The notes beneath the pieces were generated by a model. The model saw nothing but the letters and a program-made list of their open reading frames with translations, made no database searches and had not been told where the DNA came from. 44,457 bases of DNA from a virus, in IMG/VR virus record IMGVR_UViG_3300017922_000005, positions 1 through 44,457 of that record; one strand, given 5' to 3'. Below are positions 11,879 through 31,786 of this stretch, piece by piece (within the stretch, counting starts at the first letter, position 1; the number at the start of each line of letters is the position of its first letter). The translations under genes and the position numbers were made by a program.

Positions 11879-12184
11879 TTATTCCTCCTTGAGGTAGTAT
11901 CCTCTCTTGTTTATTTCATCTTCCAGTTCGGAGATGTCTGCATCATCAAGGGCTTCTTGCAGGTCTTCGTAGCAGTTTATACTATCTCTCTGCACTACCT
12001 CATGCAGGATTTCGTCATCATCTGCATCCAGTAAGGCATCCACACGGGCATAATAAACCTCGTCCTCGGTCATCTCTATTACTTCCCGTGCCTCTTCTCC
12101 ATCAAGAGTGTCCTTAATTATCTCAAGTCCGTATTCGTCAATTGCCATTCTGATTACTTGCTTTGCAAAATCCTTTCCATACAT
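11879..12184 (-). CDS. Acidic hypothetical protein
   Basis: 101 aa, GAGGT RBS. Confidence 0.75.
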   Translation of the reverse strand: MYGKDFAKQVIRMAIDEYGLEIIKDTLDGEEAREVIEMTEDEVYYARVDALLDADDDEILHEVVQRDSINCYEDLQEALDDADISELEDEINKRGYYLKEE

Positions 12185-14434: not shown

Positions 14435-15112
14435 TTACTCTTCTGGTGGATAGTCGTATTCGAACCTATCCATGGATTCCGCAACTGCTTCGTCAAATTT
14501 ATCGTTGTTGGCATTCTTGCGGAGTTTGGGGAAGGCTACAGTAATTATCGCTGTTTTGACTTTGCCAAAGTCTTCTCCAAATTTGGACTCTCCCATGAAG
14601 ACTGGTGCGATTCCCTTGATAAAGATGTCTTCAAGGTAGTTGGTCACCTGTTCCAGTTTGTCTTCTGGAAATTCTGCTTCCTCAAGGTATTCCCTGACCT
14701 CCGTGTCAAGGTCTGCGAAAGAATCCTTGTCCTCGGATTCTTCCGGTTCTTCTGTCTTGGGTTCCCTTTTCAGTTCTTTGGTTTCCTTCTCTGCCTTAAC
14801 TGCCGTGGTCTGTGTTTCCACCCTTGCCACCGTAGGCTCACTGAAAGGAGTTGGGAACACATCGTGGAGTTTGACTGGCTCTCCATTTTCATCAAGATAA
14901 TGCTTCTCCTCTGATCTGATATGTCTGCGAATGTTCTGTGTGGAGCACCCGAAATGCTTGGCAATGAGTCTGTAACCCCATGCCTTGGGTTCTTCCATCT
15001 TGTTCTCTTTTCTGTCGTAATAGTTGAGTTCATGCCTGCCAACATAAAGGTCAACTACTTCCTTGTGGTTGATACCGATATGTCCAGATTTTGTGGTCTG
15101 CTCGTTTGTCAT
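14435..15112 (-). CDS. HTH-containing protein with acidic linker
   Basis: YRLIAKHFGCSTQNIRRHIR HTH; GGAGG RBS. Confidence 0.75.
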   Translation of the reverse strand: MTNEQTTKSGHIGINHKEVVDLYVGRHELNYYDRKENKMEEPKAWGYRLIAKHFGCSTQNIRRHIRSEEKHYLDENGEPVKLHDVFPTPFSEPTVARVETQTTAVKAEKETKELKREPKTEEPEESEDKDSFADLDTEVREYLEEAEFPEDKLEQVTNYLEDIFIKGIAPVFMGESKFGEDFGKVKTAIITVAFPKLRKNANNDKFDEAVAESMDRFEYDYPPEE

Positions 15113-15343: not shown

Positions 15344-15405
15344 CGTTTATCTGTCCTGACTGATACCAGTCAGGATTCCAGTAAACGGAGGGAGGAATCT
15401 CCCTC
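15344..15405. terminator. Pair of intergenic hairpins (9 bp TCCTGACTG/CAGTCAGGA; 7 bp GAGGGAG/CTCCCTC)
   Basis: Perfect stems at 15354-15375 and 15388-15405; outer CGTTTA/TAAACG helix. Confidence 0.5.
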
Positions 15406-15592
15406 ACAAATACGATATCGGAATCGTTGAACCGCATCCATAAACATTCTTACTTGCTAACTAATCCTCCATGCATTCCTTACATGAATCGCAATCAACT
15501 CCGATATGCCCTTCAGGTGCCCCACAATCCTTACAAGCGTAGCACTTCCGCACTGCATAACATTGCAATTTATAAGGGCAAGGTTTATGCAA
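15404..15592 (-). CDS. Cys-rich microprotein (43 aa to TAG at 15461-15463, 62 aa if read through); not in ORF track
   Basis: GGAGTGA + TTG start; MHKPCPYKLQCYAVRKCYACKDCGAPEGHIGVDCDSCKECMED-TAG-LASKNVYGCGSTIPISYL. Confidence 0.55.
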
Positions 15593-15722
15593 CCGAATCA
15601 CTCCTTAACTTTCTTAAGATTGCTGGGAGATCATCCCCATCGGGGAGCTCACGATTGAAGACTTCATCCTCTACGTCATGATCAACTTTCTTGCGCCTGT
15701 GTGGAGACAATCCTTGCCTCAT
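15585..15722 (-). CDS. Small hypothetical protein, 45 aa; not in ORF track
   Basis: ATGA overlap with upstream stop; MRQGLSPHRRKKVDHDVEDEVFNRELPDGDDLPAILRKLRSDSVA. Confidence 0.55.
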   Translation of the reverse strand: MRQGLSPHRRKKVDHDVEDEVFNRELPDGDDLPAILRKLRSDSVA

Positions 15723-16000
15723 TGTTTTCTTCTCCTTGCTGTTAGTGAAATTATCTTGGAATCAAAGACATTATTGGTTGAACATTCGACATGCCAGCCT
15801 TGCTCTCGCATCTTCTTGGCAAGGAAATTCCTGATTCTTTGATTCTTTTTGTGTTCATCGTACTCCTTGGAAACCCATGATCCGATCACGATATCGAATT
15901 CATTCACGACCTCCGATGGATAAAGTCGTCCGGTGGCATTTGCGTTGCCACCTTCCTCCTCAATAACATCCTCCCACCATTCCTTATCCTTGTATTCCAT
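15719..16000 (-). CDS. Hypothetical protein, 93 aa
   Basis: GGAGGAGTGA RBS supports start MEYKDK at 16000 rather than 16072. Confidence 0.7.
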   Translation of the reverse strand: MEYKDKEWWEDVIEEEGGNANATGRLYPSEVVNEFDIVIGSWVSKEYDEHKKNQRIRNFLAKKMREQGWHVECSTNNVFDSKIISLTARRRKQ

Positions 16001-16005
16001 ATGAA

Positions 16006-16449
16006 TCACTCCTCCAGTAATCCGTGATTCCCACGAATTTCGTATGTTGATTTGCCAAATTTGCGTGCCCACTTAAATATCTGGTCTGCGCAATCCGGTT
16101 TATTTATATCGTCCTTTATGCAATGAATGCTGTCAGAATCAAATGGCTCGTCAAAAGGGATGCATGCTGTATCAATTCCGCATTCCTCGACCAAATCGTA
16201 TAAGTCCTCACTGCGCATCTCATCAAGCGTCATTGCCCTGCCTATCAAGTCTGCCCATGCAACTTGGGCAATCTCGTCATACACGGAGTAACCCACGAAT
16301 TGAAACTTGACCTCCGACATTTCAATAAAAGTTGGCTCATGGCAGATGCCCACATCGACATCATCACCATTATGCAAACGGAATCTCAAAATGTGTGTGG
16401 CAACTTCGTCATATCGATAATACCCACGATCCTTGTCCTCATTATTCAT
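16006..16449 (-). CDS. Hypothetical acidic protein
   Basis: 147 aa; GGAGG RBS, TAATG overlap. Confidence 0.75.
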   Translation of the reverse strand: MNNEDKDRGYYRYDEVATHILRFRLHNGDDVDVGICHEPTFIEMSEVKFQFVGYSVYDEIAQVAWADLIGRAMTLDEMRSEDLYDLVEECGIDTACIPFDEPFDSDSIHCIKDDINKPDCADQIFKWARKFGKSTYEIRGNHGLLEE

Positions 16450-16643
16450 TATGCATCCTCCATTATAATCTCGACTACGGTTTCACCAACATCGCCTGCT
16501 GGATCATCCTCATCACGGGTGAACACACGAATTTGTTTCACGCCTGCAAGGGAATCCTTGTTCAGGTTAAATTCATCATGCTTGTCGCTGAAAGTCACGT
16601 GCTTGGTGACTTGCCTAACTGTAAATTGACGTTTCTCTCCGAT
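16449..16643 (-). CDS. Small protein, 64 aa, apparent ATC start; not in ORF track
   Basis: AGGAG-CGTGAAACT-ATC; (I)GEKRQFTVRQVTKHVTFSDKHDEF...VVEIIMEDA-TAA overlapping the next ATG. Confidence 0.55.
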   Translation of the reverse strand: MGEKRQFTVRQVTKHVTFSDKHDEFNLNKDSLAGVKQIRVFTRDEDDPAGDVGETVVEIIMEDA

Positions 16644-16690
16644 AGTTTCACGCTCCTGTTGTTAATTTCACGGTTGCTTCATGCTTCACT

Positions 16691-16822
16691 TCACGCCTGC
16701 GATTTCACGCAATCGTGAAGGACGTCCGAATGCGCAACCACACGCATCCGGATTCCGTCCCATGAATCCTTGTCCTCGTGAATGAATGGGGTCAGATCAA
16801 ACTGCCCCACCATTCGACTCAT
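16691..16822 (-). CDS. Small protein, 43 aa, inside the hairpin array; not in ORF track
   Basis: MSRMVGQFDLTPFIHEDKDSWDGIRMRVVAHSDVLHDCVKSQA; starts 6 nt after the upstream stop; weak RBS. Confidence 0.45.
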   Translation of the reverse strand: MSRMVGQFDLTPFIHEDKDSWDGIRMRVVAHSDVLHDCVKSQA

Positions 16823-17032
16823 TCTGAGTCAAATGAATTCATCCCTGTGGGATGAATACCAATCGTCCCGACGATATTCTGACCTCACGTGACCAGAATC
16901 CATGACGAATCCCATGGCACCATTCTTCTGAATGAACGTGCGCACAATTCTGCTATTGTCGCTGCAATGCTTGGCTGCTGGTTTCATGGCTGAACCTCCC
17001 AGTTCAGCCAGTTTGAATTCACAAATTCAAAC
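16704..17032. other. Array of about 15 abutting hairpins and palindromes
   Basis: Stems at 16704-19, 16728-49, 16750-69, 16784-815, 16816-30, 16837-57, 16862-75, 16876-99, 16900-17, 16921-34, 16952-70, 16987-17010, 17011-32; palindromes GGACGTCC and GTGCGCAC. Confidence 0.75.
16829..16987 (-). CDS. Small protein, 52 aa, inside the hairpin array; not in ORF track
   Basis: GGAGG + 7 nt + ATG; MKPAAKHCSDNSRIVRTFIQKNGAMGFVMDSGHVRSEYRRDDWYSSHRDEFI. Confidence 0.55.
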   Translation of the reverse strand: MKPAAKHCSDNSRIVRTFIQKNGAMGFVMDSGHVRSEYRRDDWYSSHRDEFI

Positions 17033-17246
17033 ATAACTGATCCTCACCAAATTCGACATTCCTGACAGTGGTTCCAAACCGATTCAGGAACAATTCATGC
17101 ACATTGTCGTGGATGTTCTCGGCAATTGCGCTGGTCAATTCTTTCACGCCATTGTGGTCAATCCTGTCGCTCACATTCACGACCACGGTTTCACGTGCAT
17201 GCCTGCCATGATCATTCATGACATCAATTTGGATGTTGAGTTGCAT
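17019..17246 (-). CDS. Small early protein
   Basis: GGAG RBS; 75 aa; no Tyr. Confidence 0.7.
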   Translation of the reverse strand: MQLNIQIDVMNDHGRHARETVVVNVSDRIDHNGVKELTSAIAENIHDNVHELFLNRFGTTVRNVEFGEDQLCLNL

Positions 17247-17279
17247 TTCAATCGCTCCAAAAAAGTGAATTGGTTGGGC

Positions 17280-17618
17280 TCATTGCCCAACCTGTGACTC
17301 TAATTCAGCAATGCGCTGCTTGAGCAATTCCTCCTTGGATGGCTCGTGCATTGCGTCATCAATGACATCCTTGAGCTGCATTGCTACCAATTCACCCACG
17401 AATTCCTCTGGGGTTGGTTGCAATTGCGCTGCTGACTTGACTGACTTGGATCGCTTGAGGTCACGTGGCGCTGGTTCCTTGATTCCCAACCTCACCAACC
17501 AGCGTCGTGCATTCTCTCTGCTGCATTCCAATTCCTTGGCAACTCCAGTCACGGATTGCCTCACGTCCCATGCGTCACGAACCGATTGCTCGTCAATTCC
17601 TTTGTGGTTGCTGCTCAT
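17280..17618 (-). CDS. HTH DNA-binding protein, first gene of the leftward arm
   Basis: SVTGVAKELECSRENARRWLVRLGI HTH; C-terminal short coiled coil; no Tyr. Confidence 0.75.
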   Translation of the reverse strand: MSSNHKGIDEQSVRDAWDVRQSVTGVAKELECSRENARRWLVRLGIKEPAPRDLKRSKSVKSAAQLQPTPEEFVGELVAMQLKDVIDDAMHEPSKEELLKQRIAELESQVGQ

Positions 17619-17661
17619 ACTTGATCACGTCCTGCCATGGATGGGAGCGGGTTGCGCTGAT

Positions 17662-17685
17662 CCGGAACCGAACCGGAACCGAACC
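17662..17685 (+). repeat. Tandem 11-bp repeat (CCGGAACCGAA x2.2)
   Basis: Seen directly in the GC-rich segment upstream of the first leftward gene. Confidence 0.85.
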
Positions 17686-17859
17686 AGCATGCCGCCCCAT
17701 CCCTCGGCAATCAACCCGATGAGGTGGGCGCTCGTGCTGTGATCGCTATCGGGCGCCATCGGCAATGGTTTGCTGGTGCTATGCGATGGCGGCAGAGGTC
17801 GGTGGCGGGGTTGAATCGGCATCGGAATCCGATGTCCGGTGGGGTTTGCTAGAGGAAAT

Positions 17860-18790
17860 AAGAATCTGATTGCCGATATTCGTCGTTTGTGAAACCGGAA
17901 AAATAATTCTAATTGAGTACAAAAAAGGGGAACCACTTGTTTGATTTTACAAATGTAGTCAGCAATTTAATTCCGACATAATAAGAAACCGGAATCTGAT
18001 TGCTGTTTGTATTTTCGTAAACCAAATAAAAGAATTAGTTAACTAGTAAACCGGAAATTAAAAAATAATTAACTAGTAAACCAGAAAAAGGTTGCCGATT
18101 TACGAGCAGTCAAATATCGGAAACCGATTGCCGAAAATATGAAAATGAGTTGGTAATACATATGAAATATTATATAGATTAGGTACTTCGTAATAATGAG
18201 TTTATAGGGCGTATGAAATATTCTATAAATTAGGTACTTAGTGGTAATTATTTTGATTCTCATTCTAAGTGAGAACATACACAATACATCAAATCTTACA
18301 AAAAACAAAACCTTCTTATTTATGAAGTGTCTTATTATACATAATTATCAAGGACAAGGAATTAGAGCATATTATGCTGAAAATATGAGTACACACCCAT
18401 CAATCGATTTAATCAAGTGTTATGCGTTTGATGGGGATGATCTATGTGGGTTATTTACGGTTAAATAGATAGGATAGCATAATTCCTTCAACAACAATTA
18501 AACATGCAAATGCTACACCTATTAATGGATTATTTGGATCATATTTCAATTCAGAAAATTGAAATAAAAATAATGCTTGTATTATTTTATATATCATGTA
18601 AAATACTAAATCTCATGAAATTCCATGAAATACAATATAATATGACCCCATATAATCCCACATGGCACCAATAAATATTGCACCAATAAATACTACACGA
18701 TATTTTATTAGGTACCCAAGGGTATTTCCTATTACCAGCATATGTCCAGAAAGATTAACTCAAAGTACGTACGTAAAAATAATTTATAAG
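17860..18790. promoter_or_regulatory. AT-rich divergent control region with several direct-repeat families (candidate origin, promoters or terminus)
   Basis: AAACCGGAA at 17892, 17986, 18048; TTAACTAGTAAACC(G/A)GAAA at 18039 and 18069; 28-bp TATGAAATATT..TTAGGTACTT at 18161 and 18212; GCACCAATAAATA at 18665 and 18680. Confidence 0.65.
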
Positions 18791-30283: not shown

Positions 30284-31786
30284 ATGCTCAATGTCGATGA
30301 AAATACTAGAACTGTTAGTGGCTATGGTACCGTAGAGATTGTCGATAATCAGGGCGACTACGTACCCATCGATGTTGTTTTGCGCTTAATGGATACCTAC
30401 ATGAACAGGGGCGGTGTGCTTGTCGATACACATACCAACCGCCATGTAGGTAAAATTCTCCATTGGGAACCCAAAGAAAAAGATGGGAAAAATGCTGTCT
30501 GGTTACAGGCTCAAATCTTTGATGATTATTCAATCGATGATATGATTTGGGATGCTATAAAGGAAGGGCATTATACTGGATTTTCATTTGGGGGCAGGGG
30601 TTTGGACAAGCACGTAGTATGCAATGCAGAACAGGGCTGTTTCAACCATATAGACGACATGGAAATTTGGGAATGGTCAATAGTTCCCAAGCCTGCTAAC
30701 AAAGAATCGACTATAGACGAATTCAATAAATTAGCAAAAGGTGATAAGTTGACAGATGCCATGATGCCAGTGTTGAACTCAAAAGGAAATATCGAATATA
30801 TGGAAGTAGAACTTTTACAGAAAGCCGAAAAGGAAAGTCCTGAAGAAGAAAAAGCATACCTTGAAGAGGATGTTGATCTCGCAGAAGGTGAAGAAGCTGA
30901 TTGTCCATTGAAAGAGAAAGAAAAGGCAATGGGTAATCGTGAAATGAATCCTGATTCGGACAGACCTCTTCAATATTATCGAGATGCCAAGCATTCTGAA
31001 AGGGTAAAACCCGATAGAAGGAACAGGCGTAAATTGAGTTCAACAGAAATAAAAGACGCACGCAATGTAGCCGAAGCTGCTAATGATCCCAAGCAGAATA
31101 TTGGAAAGGACGACATTCCGGAATATATGATGCATGATGGACATGGTGAATCTAGTAAGGCAACTAAACGTGCAATTCGTTACGCTAATAAAGGAGAACA
31201 AAATATGACTGAAAATGAAGTAGAAATCCTTGTTCCAATGGAGAAATCTGATGGAACTACATCATGGGAACCTATGATAATAGGAGAGGATGCACTTGAA
31301 AAAGCAGGAGATGAAGTACCAGTGACACCCCCAGCAGAAGAATCCGATTCCCCAATGAATCAGATACTCAAGAAACTTGAAGGTATTGAGAGCAGGATAA
31401 CCAAGCTCGAAGGTACCTCCGGACAGCCAGAGATCGAATCTGGAGAGACAGAAAAAGCCGAAACCCCAAAGAAGGTAACGCTTCCAGAAGCCGAACAGAC
31501 AAACGATACTACCCACGCAACTGACGATCATCAGATTCAGCAGGGCAAATCCAAGACCATGAACAAATCAGAAGAGCTTGCTTCCGTTGTTCAGAATGAA
31601 CTGCAGAAAGCTGGATATACAGAAACACCCAGACCTGCAGCACAGTCAGACCAGCCATTCATGGACAATGATGCATCAACCATAAAGGATGTCCTTATGA
31701 AATCCGATGAAGGTGGTTTCGACATGCACAAGGCACTTGCCAACAAATCATTTGATGATCTCAACACCCTCTTTGGAGGAGAATAA
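30284..31786 (+). CDS. Prohead protease (HK97/XkdF-like) fused to a scaffold-like C-terminal region
   Basis: VDNQGD, DTHTNRHVGK (His), YTGFSFGG (Ser), EWSIVPKPAN; directly upstream of the capsid gene. Confidence 0.9.
   Translation: MLNVDENTRTVSGYGTVEIVDNQGDYVPIDVVLRLMDTYMNRGGVLVDTHTNRHVGKILHWEPKEKDGKNAVWLQAQIFDDYSIDDMIWDAIKEGHYTGFSFGGRGLDKHVVCNAEQGCFNHIDDMEIWEWSIVPKPANKESTIDEFNKLAKGDKLTDAMMPVLNSKGNIEYMEVELLQKAEKESPEEEKAYLEEDVDLAEGEEADCPLKEKEKAMGNREMNPDSDRPLQYYRDAKHSERVKPDRRNRRKLSSTEIKDARNVAEAANDPKQNIGKDDIPEYMMHDGHGESSKATKRAIRYANKGEQNMTENEVEILVPMEKSDGTTSWEPMIIGEDALEKAGDEVPVTPPAEESDSPMNQILKKLEGIESRITKLEGTSGQPEIESGETEKAETPKKVTLPEAEQTNDTTHATDDHQIQQGKSKTMNKSEELASVVQNELQKAGYTETPRPAAQSDQPFMDNDASTIKDVLMKSDEGGFDMHKALANKSFDDLNTLFGGE

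Follow-up and report, generated by a model that had tools for sequence, protein, structure and literature searches.

Two-hairpin units segregating over an invariant fold in the first early operon of a tailed virus, probably of a methanogen

Why should some 330 nucleotides (nt) of a viral genome, seemingly taken up by two small genes, also be packed with hairpins, and does the pairing serve the transcript, the DNA, or neither? The question is raised by positions 16704-17032 of IMGVR_UViG_3300017922_000005, a 44,457-bp IMG/VR virus contig with a completeness estimate of 79%, which is considered here at its full length and called the window. A sequence-only reading of the window had described this stretch as tiled almost continuously by hairpins superimposed on open reading frames (ORFs) of 52 and 43 amino acids (aa), and had proposed a structured transcript or hairpins in single-stranded DNA (ssDNA) as the reason. 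The answer favoured here, tentatively and with a probability of about 45%, is that palindromic units of 45-49 nt, each composed of two abutting hairpins of 9-11 bp and layered on an invariant fold of ~170 nt in the first leftward (early) operon, are turned over by slippage and would fold in the early transcript at the borders of cistrons.

The structure itself is real, and all six of the stems that had been named are found in the sequence:

16704-16719: stem
16750-16769: stem
16816-16830: stem of 6 bp, extended to 11 bp with G-U pairs on the minus strand
16837-16857, minus strand: hairpin H3, stem of 9 bp with arms ATTCATCCC/GGGATGAAT
16987-17010, minus strand: hairpin H2, stem of 9 bp (10 bp with G-U) with arms TGGCTGAAC/GTTCAGCCA
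17011-17032, minus strand: hairpin H1, stem of 9 bp with arms GTTTGAATT/AATTCAAAC

Folded as RNA and compared with dinucleotide shuffles, the minus strand of 16704-17032 reaches -135.6 kcal/mol (z -6.6) and its plus strand -115.6 kcal/mol (z -7.2), and 16690-17035 folded with DNA parameters gives z -8.65 and -8.61 on the two strands. The excess persists against shuffles that preserve tri- or tetranucleotides (z -4.6 to -7.5), against codon resampling that keeps both ORF products (z -6.6) and against synonymous permutation (z -3.8); therefore, neither the TA-poor composition nor the encoded proteins explain the structure, and the composition-matched and codon-preserving shuffles, proposed beforehand as the check that could refute it, leave the folding energy exceptional. 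In a scan of 200-nt windows covering 1 to ~37 kb of the contig, 16704-16903 is the strongest outlier on both strands (z ~ -8, with a background mean of -0.9 and a standard deviation of 1.5). Moreover, the 44 kb hold 32 perfect hairpins with a stem of at least 7 bp and five with a stem of at least 9 bp, three of which lie in 16837-17032.

Two parts of the earlier description have to be given up. The near-continuous tiling reduces to an excess confined to two blocks, 16680-16920 and 16980-17040, and the middle of the 52-aa ORF (16860-16979) is unremarkable in structure (z +0.3). The extension of stems by G-U pairs on the minus strand only, which had been taken to favour RNA, carries no weight because shuffled sequences show an equal excess as an effect of composition: the energy difference between minus and plus strand is the same in native and shuffled sequence, and strand asymmetry was rejected as evidence for RNA on this ground.

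What the hairpins are emerges from the comparison of the window with ~35 near-identical contigs, fetched from JGI, Logan, ENA and NCBI by means of the small early proteins and then aligned. The four best hairpins of the stretch form two units, M1 (47 nt, H1 and H2) and M2 (49 nt, H3 and H4), each made of two abutting perfect hairpins, and one contig ~96% identical to the window (L003) is without exactly 47 nt (~16989-17035) and exactly 49 nt (16813-16861). Two further units, M3 and M4, have their sites within 900 nt of M1 and M2. The units and the genes that they touch are the following:

16989-17035, minus strand: unit M1, 47 nt, between the 75-aa and the 52-aa genes
16813-16861, minus strand: unit M2, 49 nt, H3 and H4, with the flanking direct repeat CGAWTGGT
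16811-16835, minus strand: hairpin H4, with the core GACTCA/TGAGTC
17220-17228, minus strand: empty site of unit M4, within the 75-aa gene, an indel hot spot
17692-17695, minus strand: unoccupied insertion site of M3, ahead of the first early gene in its 5' leader
17019-17246, minus strand: 75-aa early gene
16829-16987, minus strand: 52-aa ORF, a probable small early gene

M1 is missing from L003 only and is carried by all other contigs; its borders are ambiguous owing to the flanking direct repeat TCAGYYATG, which is perfect over 9 nt (two copies of TCAGTTATG) in G001, a 56.5-kb relative with terminal repeats that is 97-99% identical to the window. M3 is a 49-nt two-hairpin insert in G001/L002, L016, L020, L102, L103 and L106, and a 45-nt variant of it is found in L015. 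M4 (48 nt, two hairpins of 9-10 bp, flanking direct repeat CATG) is inserted in frame, extends the product of the 75-aa gene to 91 aa and is present in L013-L022, L104-L106 and L108 (14 loci, three of which are contigs fetched in both rounds). The site of M4 is a native quasi-palindrome at which other events are also recorded, namely a complex replacement and losses of 3, 66 and 112 nt. Between 16800 and 17700, units of this kind account for four of the indels that measure 8 nt or more; elsewhere, the comparison between the window and G001 revealed nothing unit-like. M3 and M4 each vary in presence across many assemblies made independently of one another. The units occur in differing combinations among the contigs, which make up a recombining, mosaic population, and each unit is a segregating presence/absence polymorphism.

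Some of the units resemble one another. The H1 arm GTTTGAATT differs from the M4a arm GGTTGAATC at two positions, both compensated in the opposite arm; H1 and M4b share 19 of 23 nt, loop included; and H4 and M3b have CGACTC..GAGTCG in common. A mobile multi-copy family was rejected, given that blastn-short searches with M1, M2, M3 and the core returned only self matches in the 44-kb window and in the 56.5-kb relative. The H1 pattern met 67 scattered single matches in 596 Gb of genomes, in unrelated taxa and none labelled Methanohalophilus, and hence is not an exact repeat in the genomes searched; exact-pattern scans of viral and metagenome collections found the 56.5-kb relative only. A further pair of perfect hairpins, of 9 and 7 bp and separated by 12 nt, is located at 15354-15405, ahead of a 57-aa gene, and the adjoining 165 nt (15436-15600) are missing in the L013-type contigs, L029, L110 and L113.

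Because whole units are gained or lost and are bounded by direct repeats of 4-9 nt, the pattern bears the signature of slippage or template switching. The turnover between genomes that are 97-99% identical fits hairpin-stimulated replication slippage between the short flanking repeats, or a related template switch, rather than the action of a transposase. The unit ends are not inverted repeats, and the flanking repeats (9, 8, 4 and ~4-7 nt) have no constant length. A bolder proposal would make the 45-49-nt units a new class of very small palindromic elements of archaeal viruses, self-propagating or actively inserted, that land by ATG/CATG words, even in frame, diverge by compensated change so that the hairpin and not the sequence is inherited, and partition or protect a TA-free first transcript. 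This proposal is rather unlikely; active mobility, if it were established, would place the units among the smallest known elements of this sort.

The same turnover could also be that of functionless hairpins, which would be by-products of palindrome-driven mutation, or selfish palindromes, in dispensable, fast-evolving and lineage-specific genes, with stems kept perfect by arm-to-arm copying. Template switching is documented as creating and maintaining hairpins (10.1101/2021.04.15.439925), and template-switch hairpins (10.1101/2021.04.15.439925; PMC5453318), like the coding palindromes of Nematomorpha mitochondria (PMC6649704), are perfect inverted repeats made in one step, which can lie over coding sequence and stay perfect because one arm is copied from the other. 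A single switch, however, needs a pre-existing arm, and no unit has an arm copied from a pre-existing flank: both arms of all eight unit hairpins are internal to the paired units of ~48 nt, although the start of M4 resembles the flank that follows it and the M4 site is by itself a quasi-palindrome. The absence of function would suit stems that are perfect Watson-Crick helices with an excess equal on both strands, units that are present or absent among near-identical genomes, flanking repeats of variable length (4-9 nt), a site (M4) that is a hot spot for other indels, and proteins of 75, 52, 49 and 147 aa for which no homologue was found outside the species-level lineage. It suits less well a core that is invariant while its flanks vary, stem changes that are wobble-compatible on the transcribed strand in four of four cases, two G-U pairs of H2 that are G-C in the main population, and units that include functional signals for translation, namely an ATG, a stop codon and, in one of the loops, a ribosome-binding site. 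On this evidence, functionless hairpins are a serious but doubtful alternative.

The invariant part of the locus is the fold into which M2 is set, and it coincides with the smaller of the two ORFs:

16690-16904, minus strand: structured core, ~170 nt without M2
16691-16822, minus strand: 43-aa ORF, coinciding with the core
16537-16709, minus strand: array of CGTGAA direct repeats, GCGTGAA(A/G)-like, just 3' of the core

The core, the start of which overlaps the end of the 52-aa gene, consists of a long-range helix (16904-16884/16782-16761) that encloses small hairpins in a multiloop, a 17-bp hairpin (16720-16760) and a terminal hairpin (16690-16719). M2 is located in the multiloop, and the surrounding fold is the same with or without it. 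The M2-less core (L003 325-495) folds at -76.8 kcal/mol; z is -5.7 for the transcribed strand and -5.1 for its complement, and the minimum free energy (MFE) structure is close to the centroid. Stretch 16688-16868 carries no substitution in three lineages against ~5 expected, and the flanks are ~4% different from L003. In the adjoining array, CGTGAA has five copies in 173 nt, 8 of the 20 copies of the contig fall in 16400-17300, and an A-to-G change at 16682 provides G001 and L003 with an extra one.

Several observations concern the surroundings of the core. CGTGAA clusters on the transcribed strand at 16537-16709 and 17143-17195, with the extended form GCAGGCGTGAA(A/G). Among 18 related contigs of the main population, 16510-17300 has no single-nucleotide polymorphism in ~790 nt, with 22 variable sites in 17301-17755 and 29 in 15646-16509, and looks like a recently shared haplotype block. 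In comparison with L003, the substitutions at 16577-16605 are packed into two clusters, of 6 in 7 and 6 in 8 bases, which fall on a hairpin loop and on a word close by and may reflect template switching or gene conversion; the hairpin concerned (16592-16612) has 6 of its 7 loop bases replaced in L003 and its stem kept, which speaks for structure in the RNA.

The sequence-only reading had regarded both the 52- and the 43-aa proteins as plausible, a view that holds for the first of them. The 52-aa ORF is called in every contig covering the locus and is preceded by GGGAGG 7 nt ahead of its ATG; its substitutions are synonymous in three of three cases with respect to G001, and four are synonymous and three non-synonymous with respect to L003. 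Its structure departs from codon resampling by a z of only -2.4, and it is probably a real small early gene. M2 alters its C-terminus, the product being 52 aa long with the unit and 48 aa in L003. Conversely, the 43-aa ORF is missing from every set of gene calls returned with related contigs and lacks a good ribosome-binding site; its ATG lies inside M2 and exists only where M2 is present, and it offers no substitutions from which a coding pattern could be read. Over its 132 nt it folds at -61.3 kcal/mol (z -6.6 in codon resampling). A weak point for coding is that the frame holds the 12-mer GAGGACAAGGAT, read EDKD as in two real genes. The ORF is doubtful as a gene, and a non-coding structured core is more likely. 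The 12-mer occurs at 14723 (in a 225-aa gene), at 16429 (at the start of the 147-aa gene) and at 16766 (in the 43-aa frame), each time as an in-frame EDKD, and within 14719-14742 it serves as the loop of a GAATCC/GGATTC hairpin with a stem of 8 bp.

In the window the 52- and 43-aa ORFs share one frame and are separated by TGA and two codons, because M2 is 49 nt long; in L003 the frames differ. A fused 97-aa protein made by read-through of the TGA was rejected, as the shared frame exists only where M2 is present. The units could, more generally, be removed or skipped, as bulge-helix-bulge introns, through a bypass like that of T4 gene 60 or by the read-through just mentioned. The gap of T4 gene 60 and the mitochondrial 'byp' elements are hairpin insertions of ~27-55 nt in coding sequence, bounded by matching words, which ribosomes skip and which need a stop after the take-off codon. 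Units of 47-49 nt resemble the gene 60 gap (50 nt) in length, matching words flank M1 and M2, and the frame shared across TGA and two codons would be consistent with skipping, but there is no stop after a take-off codon, each ORF ends within 9 codons anyway, the shared frame needs M2 and is lost in L003, and M4 is in frame, so that its removal is unnecessary. Nothing in the units requires or supports bypass. Archaeal introns of the bulge-helix-bulge type, in which a 4-bp helix framed by two bulges of 3 nt, one on each strand, marks the ends of the excised piece, were rejected after a scan for this motif. The native sequence yielded 13 hits where shuffles yielded 9.3, and not one of the 13 coincides with a border of M1 or M2. 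Removal or skipping is, on the whole, very improbable.

The core, with or without the units, could instead be a discrete trans-acting non-coding RNA (ncRNA), such as a decoy against host defence, or belong to a nuclease-evasion design in which a UA-free first transcript buries the rest of its sequence in stems. The background to this idea is a stretch nearly devoid of TA in which the block lies:

16663-17747, no strand: TA-dinucleotide desert, 7 TA in 1085 nt, observed/expected ratio 0.12 against 0.74 elsewhere

A well-defined and invariant fold (MFE close to the centroid) inside a 1.1-kb desert whose proteins are almost free of tyrosine would fit such an RNA. However, no promoter or terminator brackets the core, the core is found in no relative outside the species, and the excess of structure occupies only about one third of the desert. 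The search for known RNA families that had been recommended beforehand was run: cmscan of 15500-18500 against Rfam (E up to 5) returned three weak hits, none of which falls in 16690-17035, leaving the block without a family match. The hairpins are also unlike the sole published Methanohalophilus CRISPR repeat (PMC6491703), and mimicry of CRISPR repeats finds no support in that one repeat. A trans-acting or nuclease-evading RNA is improbable.

The desert and the structure excess are overlapping but distinct features. The four longest TA-free gaps of the contig all lie in the desert, where AATT is 4.6-fold and CATG 2.9-fold over expectation and plus-strand AG stands at 0.39; it holds eight GCGC sites, a word that the rest of the genome avoids, and tyrosine is absent from the 112-, 75- and 43-aa products.

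The reading favoured here, palindromic units folding in the early transcript, derives its function from where the hairpins stand. The loop of H1 holds the TGA stop of the 75-aa gene and the loop of H2 holds the GGGAGG ribosome-binding site of the 52-aa ORF. The hairpins would thus fold in the early transcript and mark the borders of cistrons, one of them closing the upstream message and the next opening the downstream message and presenting its ribosome-binding site, and they may act as exonuclease barriers or as insulators between small genes. Such a role would explain why selection keeps the stems perfect. Four differences among genomes change stems of strong hairpins (CC/TT in H2, 15358, 16611 and the M3a variant), and each of the four yields G-U in the transcribed strand where the opposite strand would have C-A, at a p of only ~0.06. 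For the structured transcript that had been proposed at the outset, the result is mixed: the structure passes the shuffle tests and the core is invariant, but the excess is symmetric between strands and the best hairpins are indel-polymorphic units.

Several findings weigh against a function in the RNA. Over the predicted pairs of the wider 2.6 kb, a bias towards pair-keeping substitutions appears on neither strand, and the hairpin excess does not differ between the strands and is no weaker with DNA parameters; folding energies cannot tell RNA from DNA here. The units are dispensable, since L003 is without two of them; their positions are varied (leader, in-frame coding sequence, gene junction, gene end); and the direction of gain or loss is unrooted. 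Furthermore, relatives with 57-69% identity in the large terminase (TerL) have neither a homologous block nor a comparable hairpin cluster. Of the hairpin block they share the 112-aa gene only, with a milder TA depletion over its homologue and with single perfect hairpins in early intergenic gaps, and the hairpin cluster was accordingly rejected as a conserved feature of the virus group.

Since neither strand exceeds the other in structure and DNA parameters give an excess no smaller than RNA parameters do, the alternative of ssDNA hairpins or cruciforms stands. At the DNA level, the dyads could be sites bound by an early viral protein, or cruciforms and ssDNA hairpins could start replication or priming, or promote a PeSL-like recombination of the small early genes. 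The half-sites G(T/G)TTG(A/G)AT(T/C) recur in H1, M4a and M4b, but H3, H4, M3a and the core stems are unrelated and too different to form one operator family. Many loops are of 3-4 nt, and z is ~ -8.6 on both strands with DNA parameters. No replication-initiator gene was recognised nearby in PHROGs and Pfam searches. The population round the block is a mosaic of recombined haplotypes, the CGTGAA array adjoins the core, and the archaeal myovirus HGTV-1 has inverted repeats ahead of many left-arm ORFs that have been compared with PeSLs (PMC3950731; PMC2839356); still, PeSL-style exchanges bounded by hairpins were not seen, the units themselves being the indels. A promoter part is also missing: archaeal TATA boxes are excluded in the block because it is almost without TA, and no promoter-like site was found in 16400-17250. 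A DNA-level element is, all considered, unlikely.

If the hairpins do act in the early transcript, their closest functional counterparts would be the REP/BIME of enterobacteria. These are short imperfect palindromes, often paired, that lie between the genes of operons, fold in the mRNA, can protect upstream cistrons from 3' exonucleases and vary in presence among strains. REPs form a high-copy family of conserved sequence, mobilised by the RAYT transposase, and are strictly extragenic. The units would work most like REP/BIME pairs, judging from the position of hairpins at a stop codon and a ribosome-binding site. They differ in being four or five units of low similarity within 900 nt, with no other copies and no transposase, one of them in frame inside a gene.

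In position, the units are like the PeSL cassettes of T4-type phages (PMC2839356), stem-loops that border small, non-essential, homologue-less genes in hyperplastic regions with rapid gain and loss (PMC2839356, PMC4122927), and like the inverted repeats of the haloarchaeal virus HGTV-1, which belong to a TATA-plus-inverted-repeat motif (PMC3950731). PeSLs, however, combine a promoter and a terminator, are conserved in sequence and serve as recombination sites that move the genes between them, whereas here there is no promoter part, the hairpin sequences differ, the hairpins come two to a unit and it is the unit that is inserted or deleted. The in-frame insertion of M4 in the 75-aa gene recalls the coding palindromes of Nematomorpha (PMC6649704) as well as the Rickettsia palindromic elements and prokaryotic MITEs, hairpin-forming insertions that may lie in frame in genes whose proteins tolerate them (PMC10969869). 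The Rickettsia elements and MITEs measure 100-500 nt and are multi-copy, with terminal inverted repeats and fixed target duplications, whereas the units are of 45-49 nt, effectively single-copy, without terminal inverted repeats and with variable flanking repeats. None of the features by which REP/BIME, MITEs and PeSLs are defined is present in the units: their sequence is neither conserved nor multi-copy, they lack a promoter part and terminal inverted repeats, and no target duplication of fixed length accompanies them.

The locus amounts to a natural experiment, in which near-identical genomes differ by whole units at four sites, so that what each unit does to the ends, stability and translation of transcripts can be measured. 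It also gives a population-scale view of perfect hairpins that arise, persist and vanish in and between genes, a matter relevant to how RNA stems and small genes lacking known homologues originate. To our knowledge, methanogen viruses are barely studied and almost nothing is known of how their early transcripts are built or protected; likewise, as far as we know, archaea use neither RNase III nor RNase E and do not depend on hairpin terminators.

The virus is tailed, and its host is probably a methanogen of the Methanosarcinaceae, with Methanohalophilus as the probable genus. The genes of the window, transcribed from the minus strand until ~18 kb and from the plus strand after it, include a family B DNA polymerase, a large terminase, a portal and a prohead protease (Pfam, larger genes only). 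The first early protein has an identical or near-identical copy at NCBI on a 56.5-kb contig labelled 'MAG: Methanohalophilus sp.'. The G+C content of the window is ~41%, with which that of Methanohalophilus is compatible (PMC6491703). Confident genes end with TGA in 32 cases and TAA in 27, and TAG occurs once, in a dubious ORF; the 56.5-kb relative, for its part, yielded no tRNA gene. This would suit a host that uses pyrrolysine. In L100, a relative with a 62% identical large terminase, a 1447-aa tail-fibre-like protein with disaggregatase domains (21532 onward) points to a Methanosarcina-type host. The database label, the G+C content, the non-use of TAG and the disaggregatase of the relative together make a Methanosarcinaceae host probable, and archaeal rules of transcription and RNA decay should therefore apply to the early operon.

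Homology searches beyond this lineage returned little. No match was obtained by blastn of 15500-18500 against the INPHARED phages, a PHROGs search with ten neighbouring proteins gave nothing usable, no homologue of the 147-aa protein was found among 1.84 billion representatives, and the homologue search with the 52-aa protein yielded a single close match only. The 112-aa protein recovered only its own 90% cluster in the database search, and tblastn on the fetched relatives brought homologues of 41-53%. It is encoded by the gene that opens the operon:

17280-17618, minus strand: first early gene, 112 aa, with a helix-turn-helix-like sequence recognised by eye, no family search confirming it
17259-17292, minus strand: terminator-like hairpin ending the 112-aa gene, the stop codon of which lies in the loop; T6 follows

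After the homologous first gene, the relative L098 also has a hairpin with the stop codon in its loop and a T-run, with a different stem sequence, which sets a precedent among related viruses for the reading of hairpins at cistron borders and speaks for RNA. Upstream of the first early gene, the leader (17625-17860) reaches a G+C content of 58% and contains GAACCG-type repeats and a possible 20-codon upstream ORF that starts at a CATG beside the M3 site. The divergent control region (17850-18300) contains the repeated words TTCCGGTTT and GGCAATCAGATTC and, in tandem, a pair of AAGTACCTAATYTATAKAATATTTCATA copies that resemble promoters of the archaeal TATA type. Elsewhere, at a point corresponding to position 11888 of the window, G001 has an extra small gene of 226 nt (30389-30614) between direct repeats of 18 nt, which take in the start codon together with the ribosome-binding site. 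Lastly, short palindromes are strongly avoided in the whole window outside the TA desert, with CGCG at 1 (72 expected), GGCC at 3 (72), CTAG at 25 (157) and GCGC at 20 (72), which suggests the action of host restriction systems.

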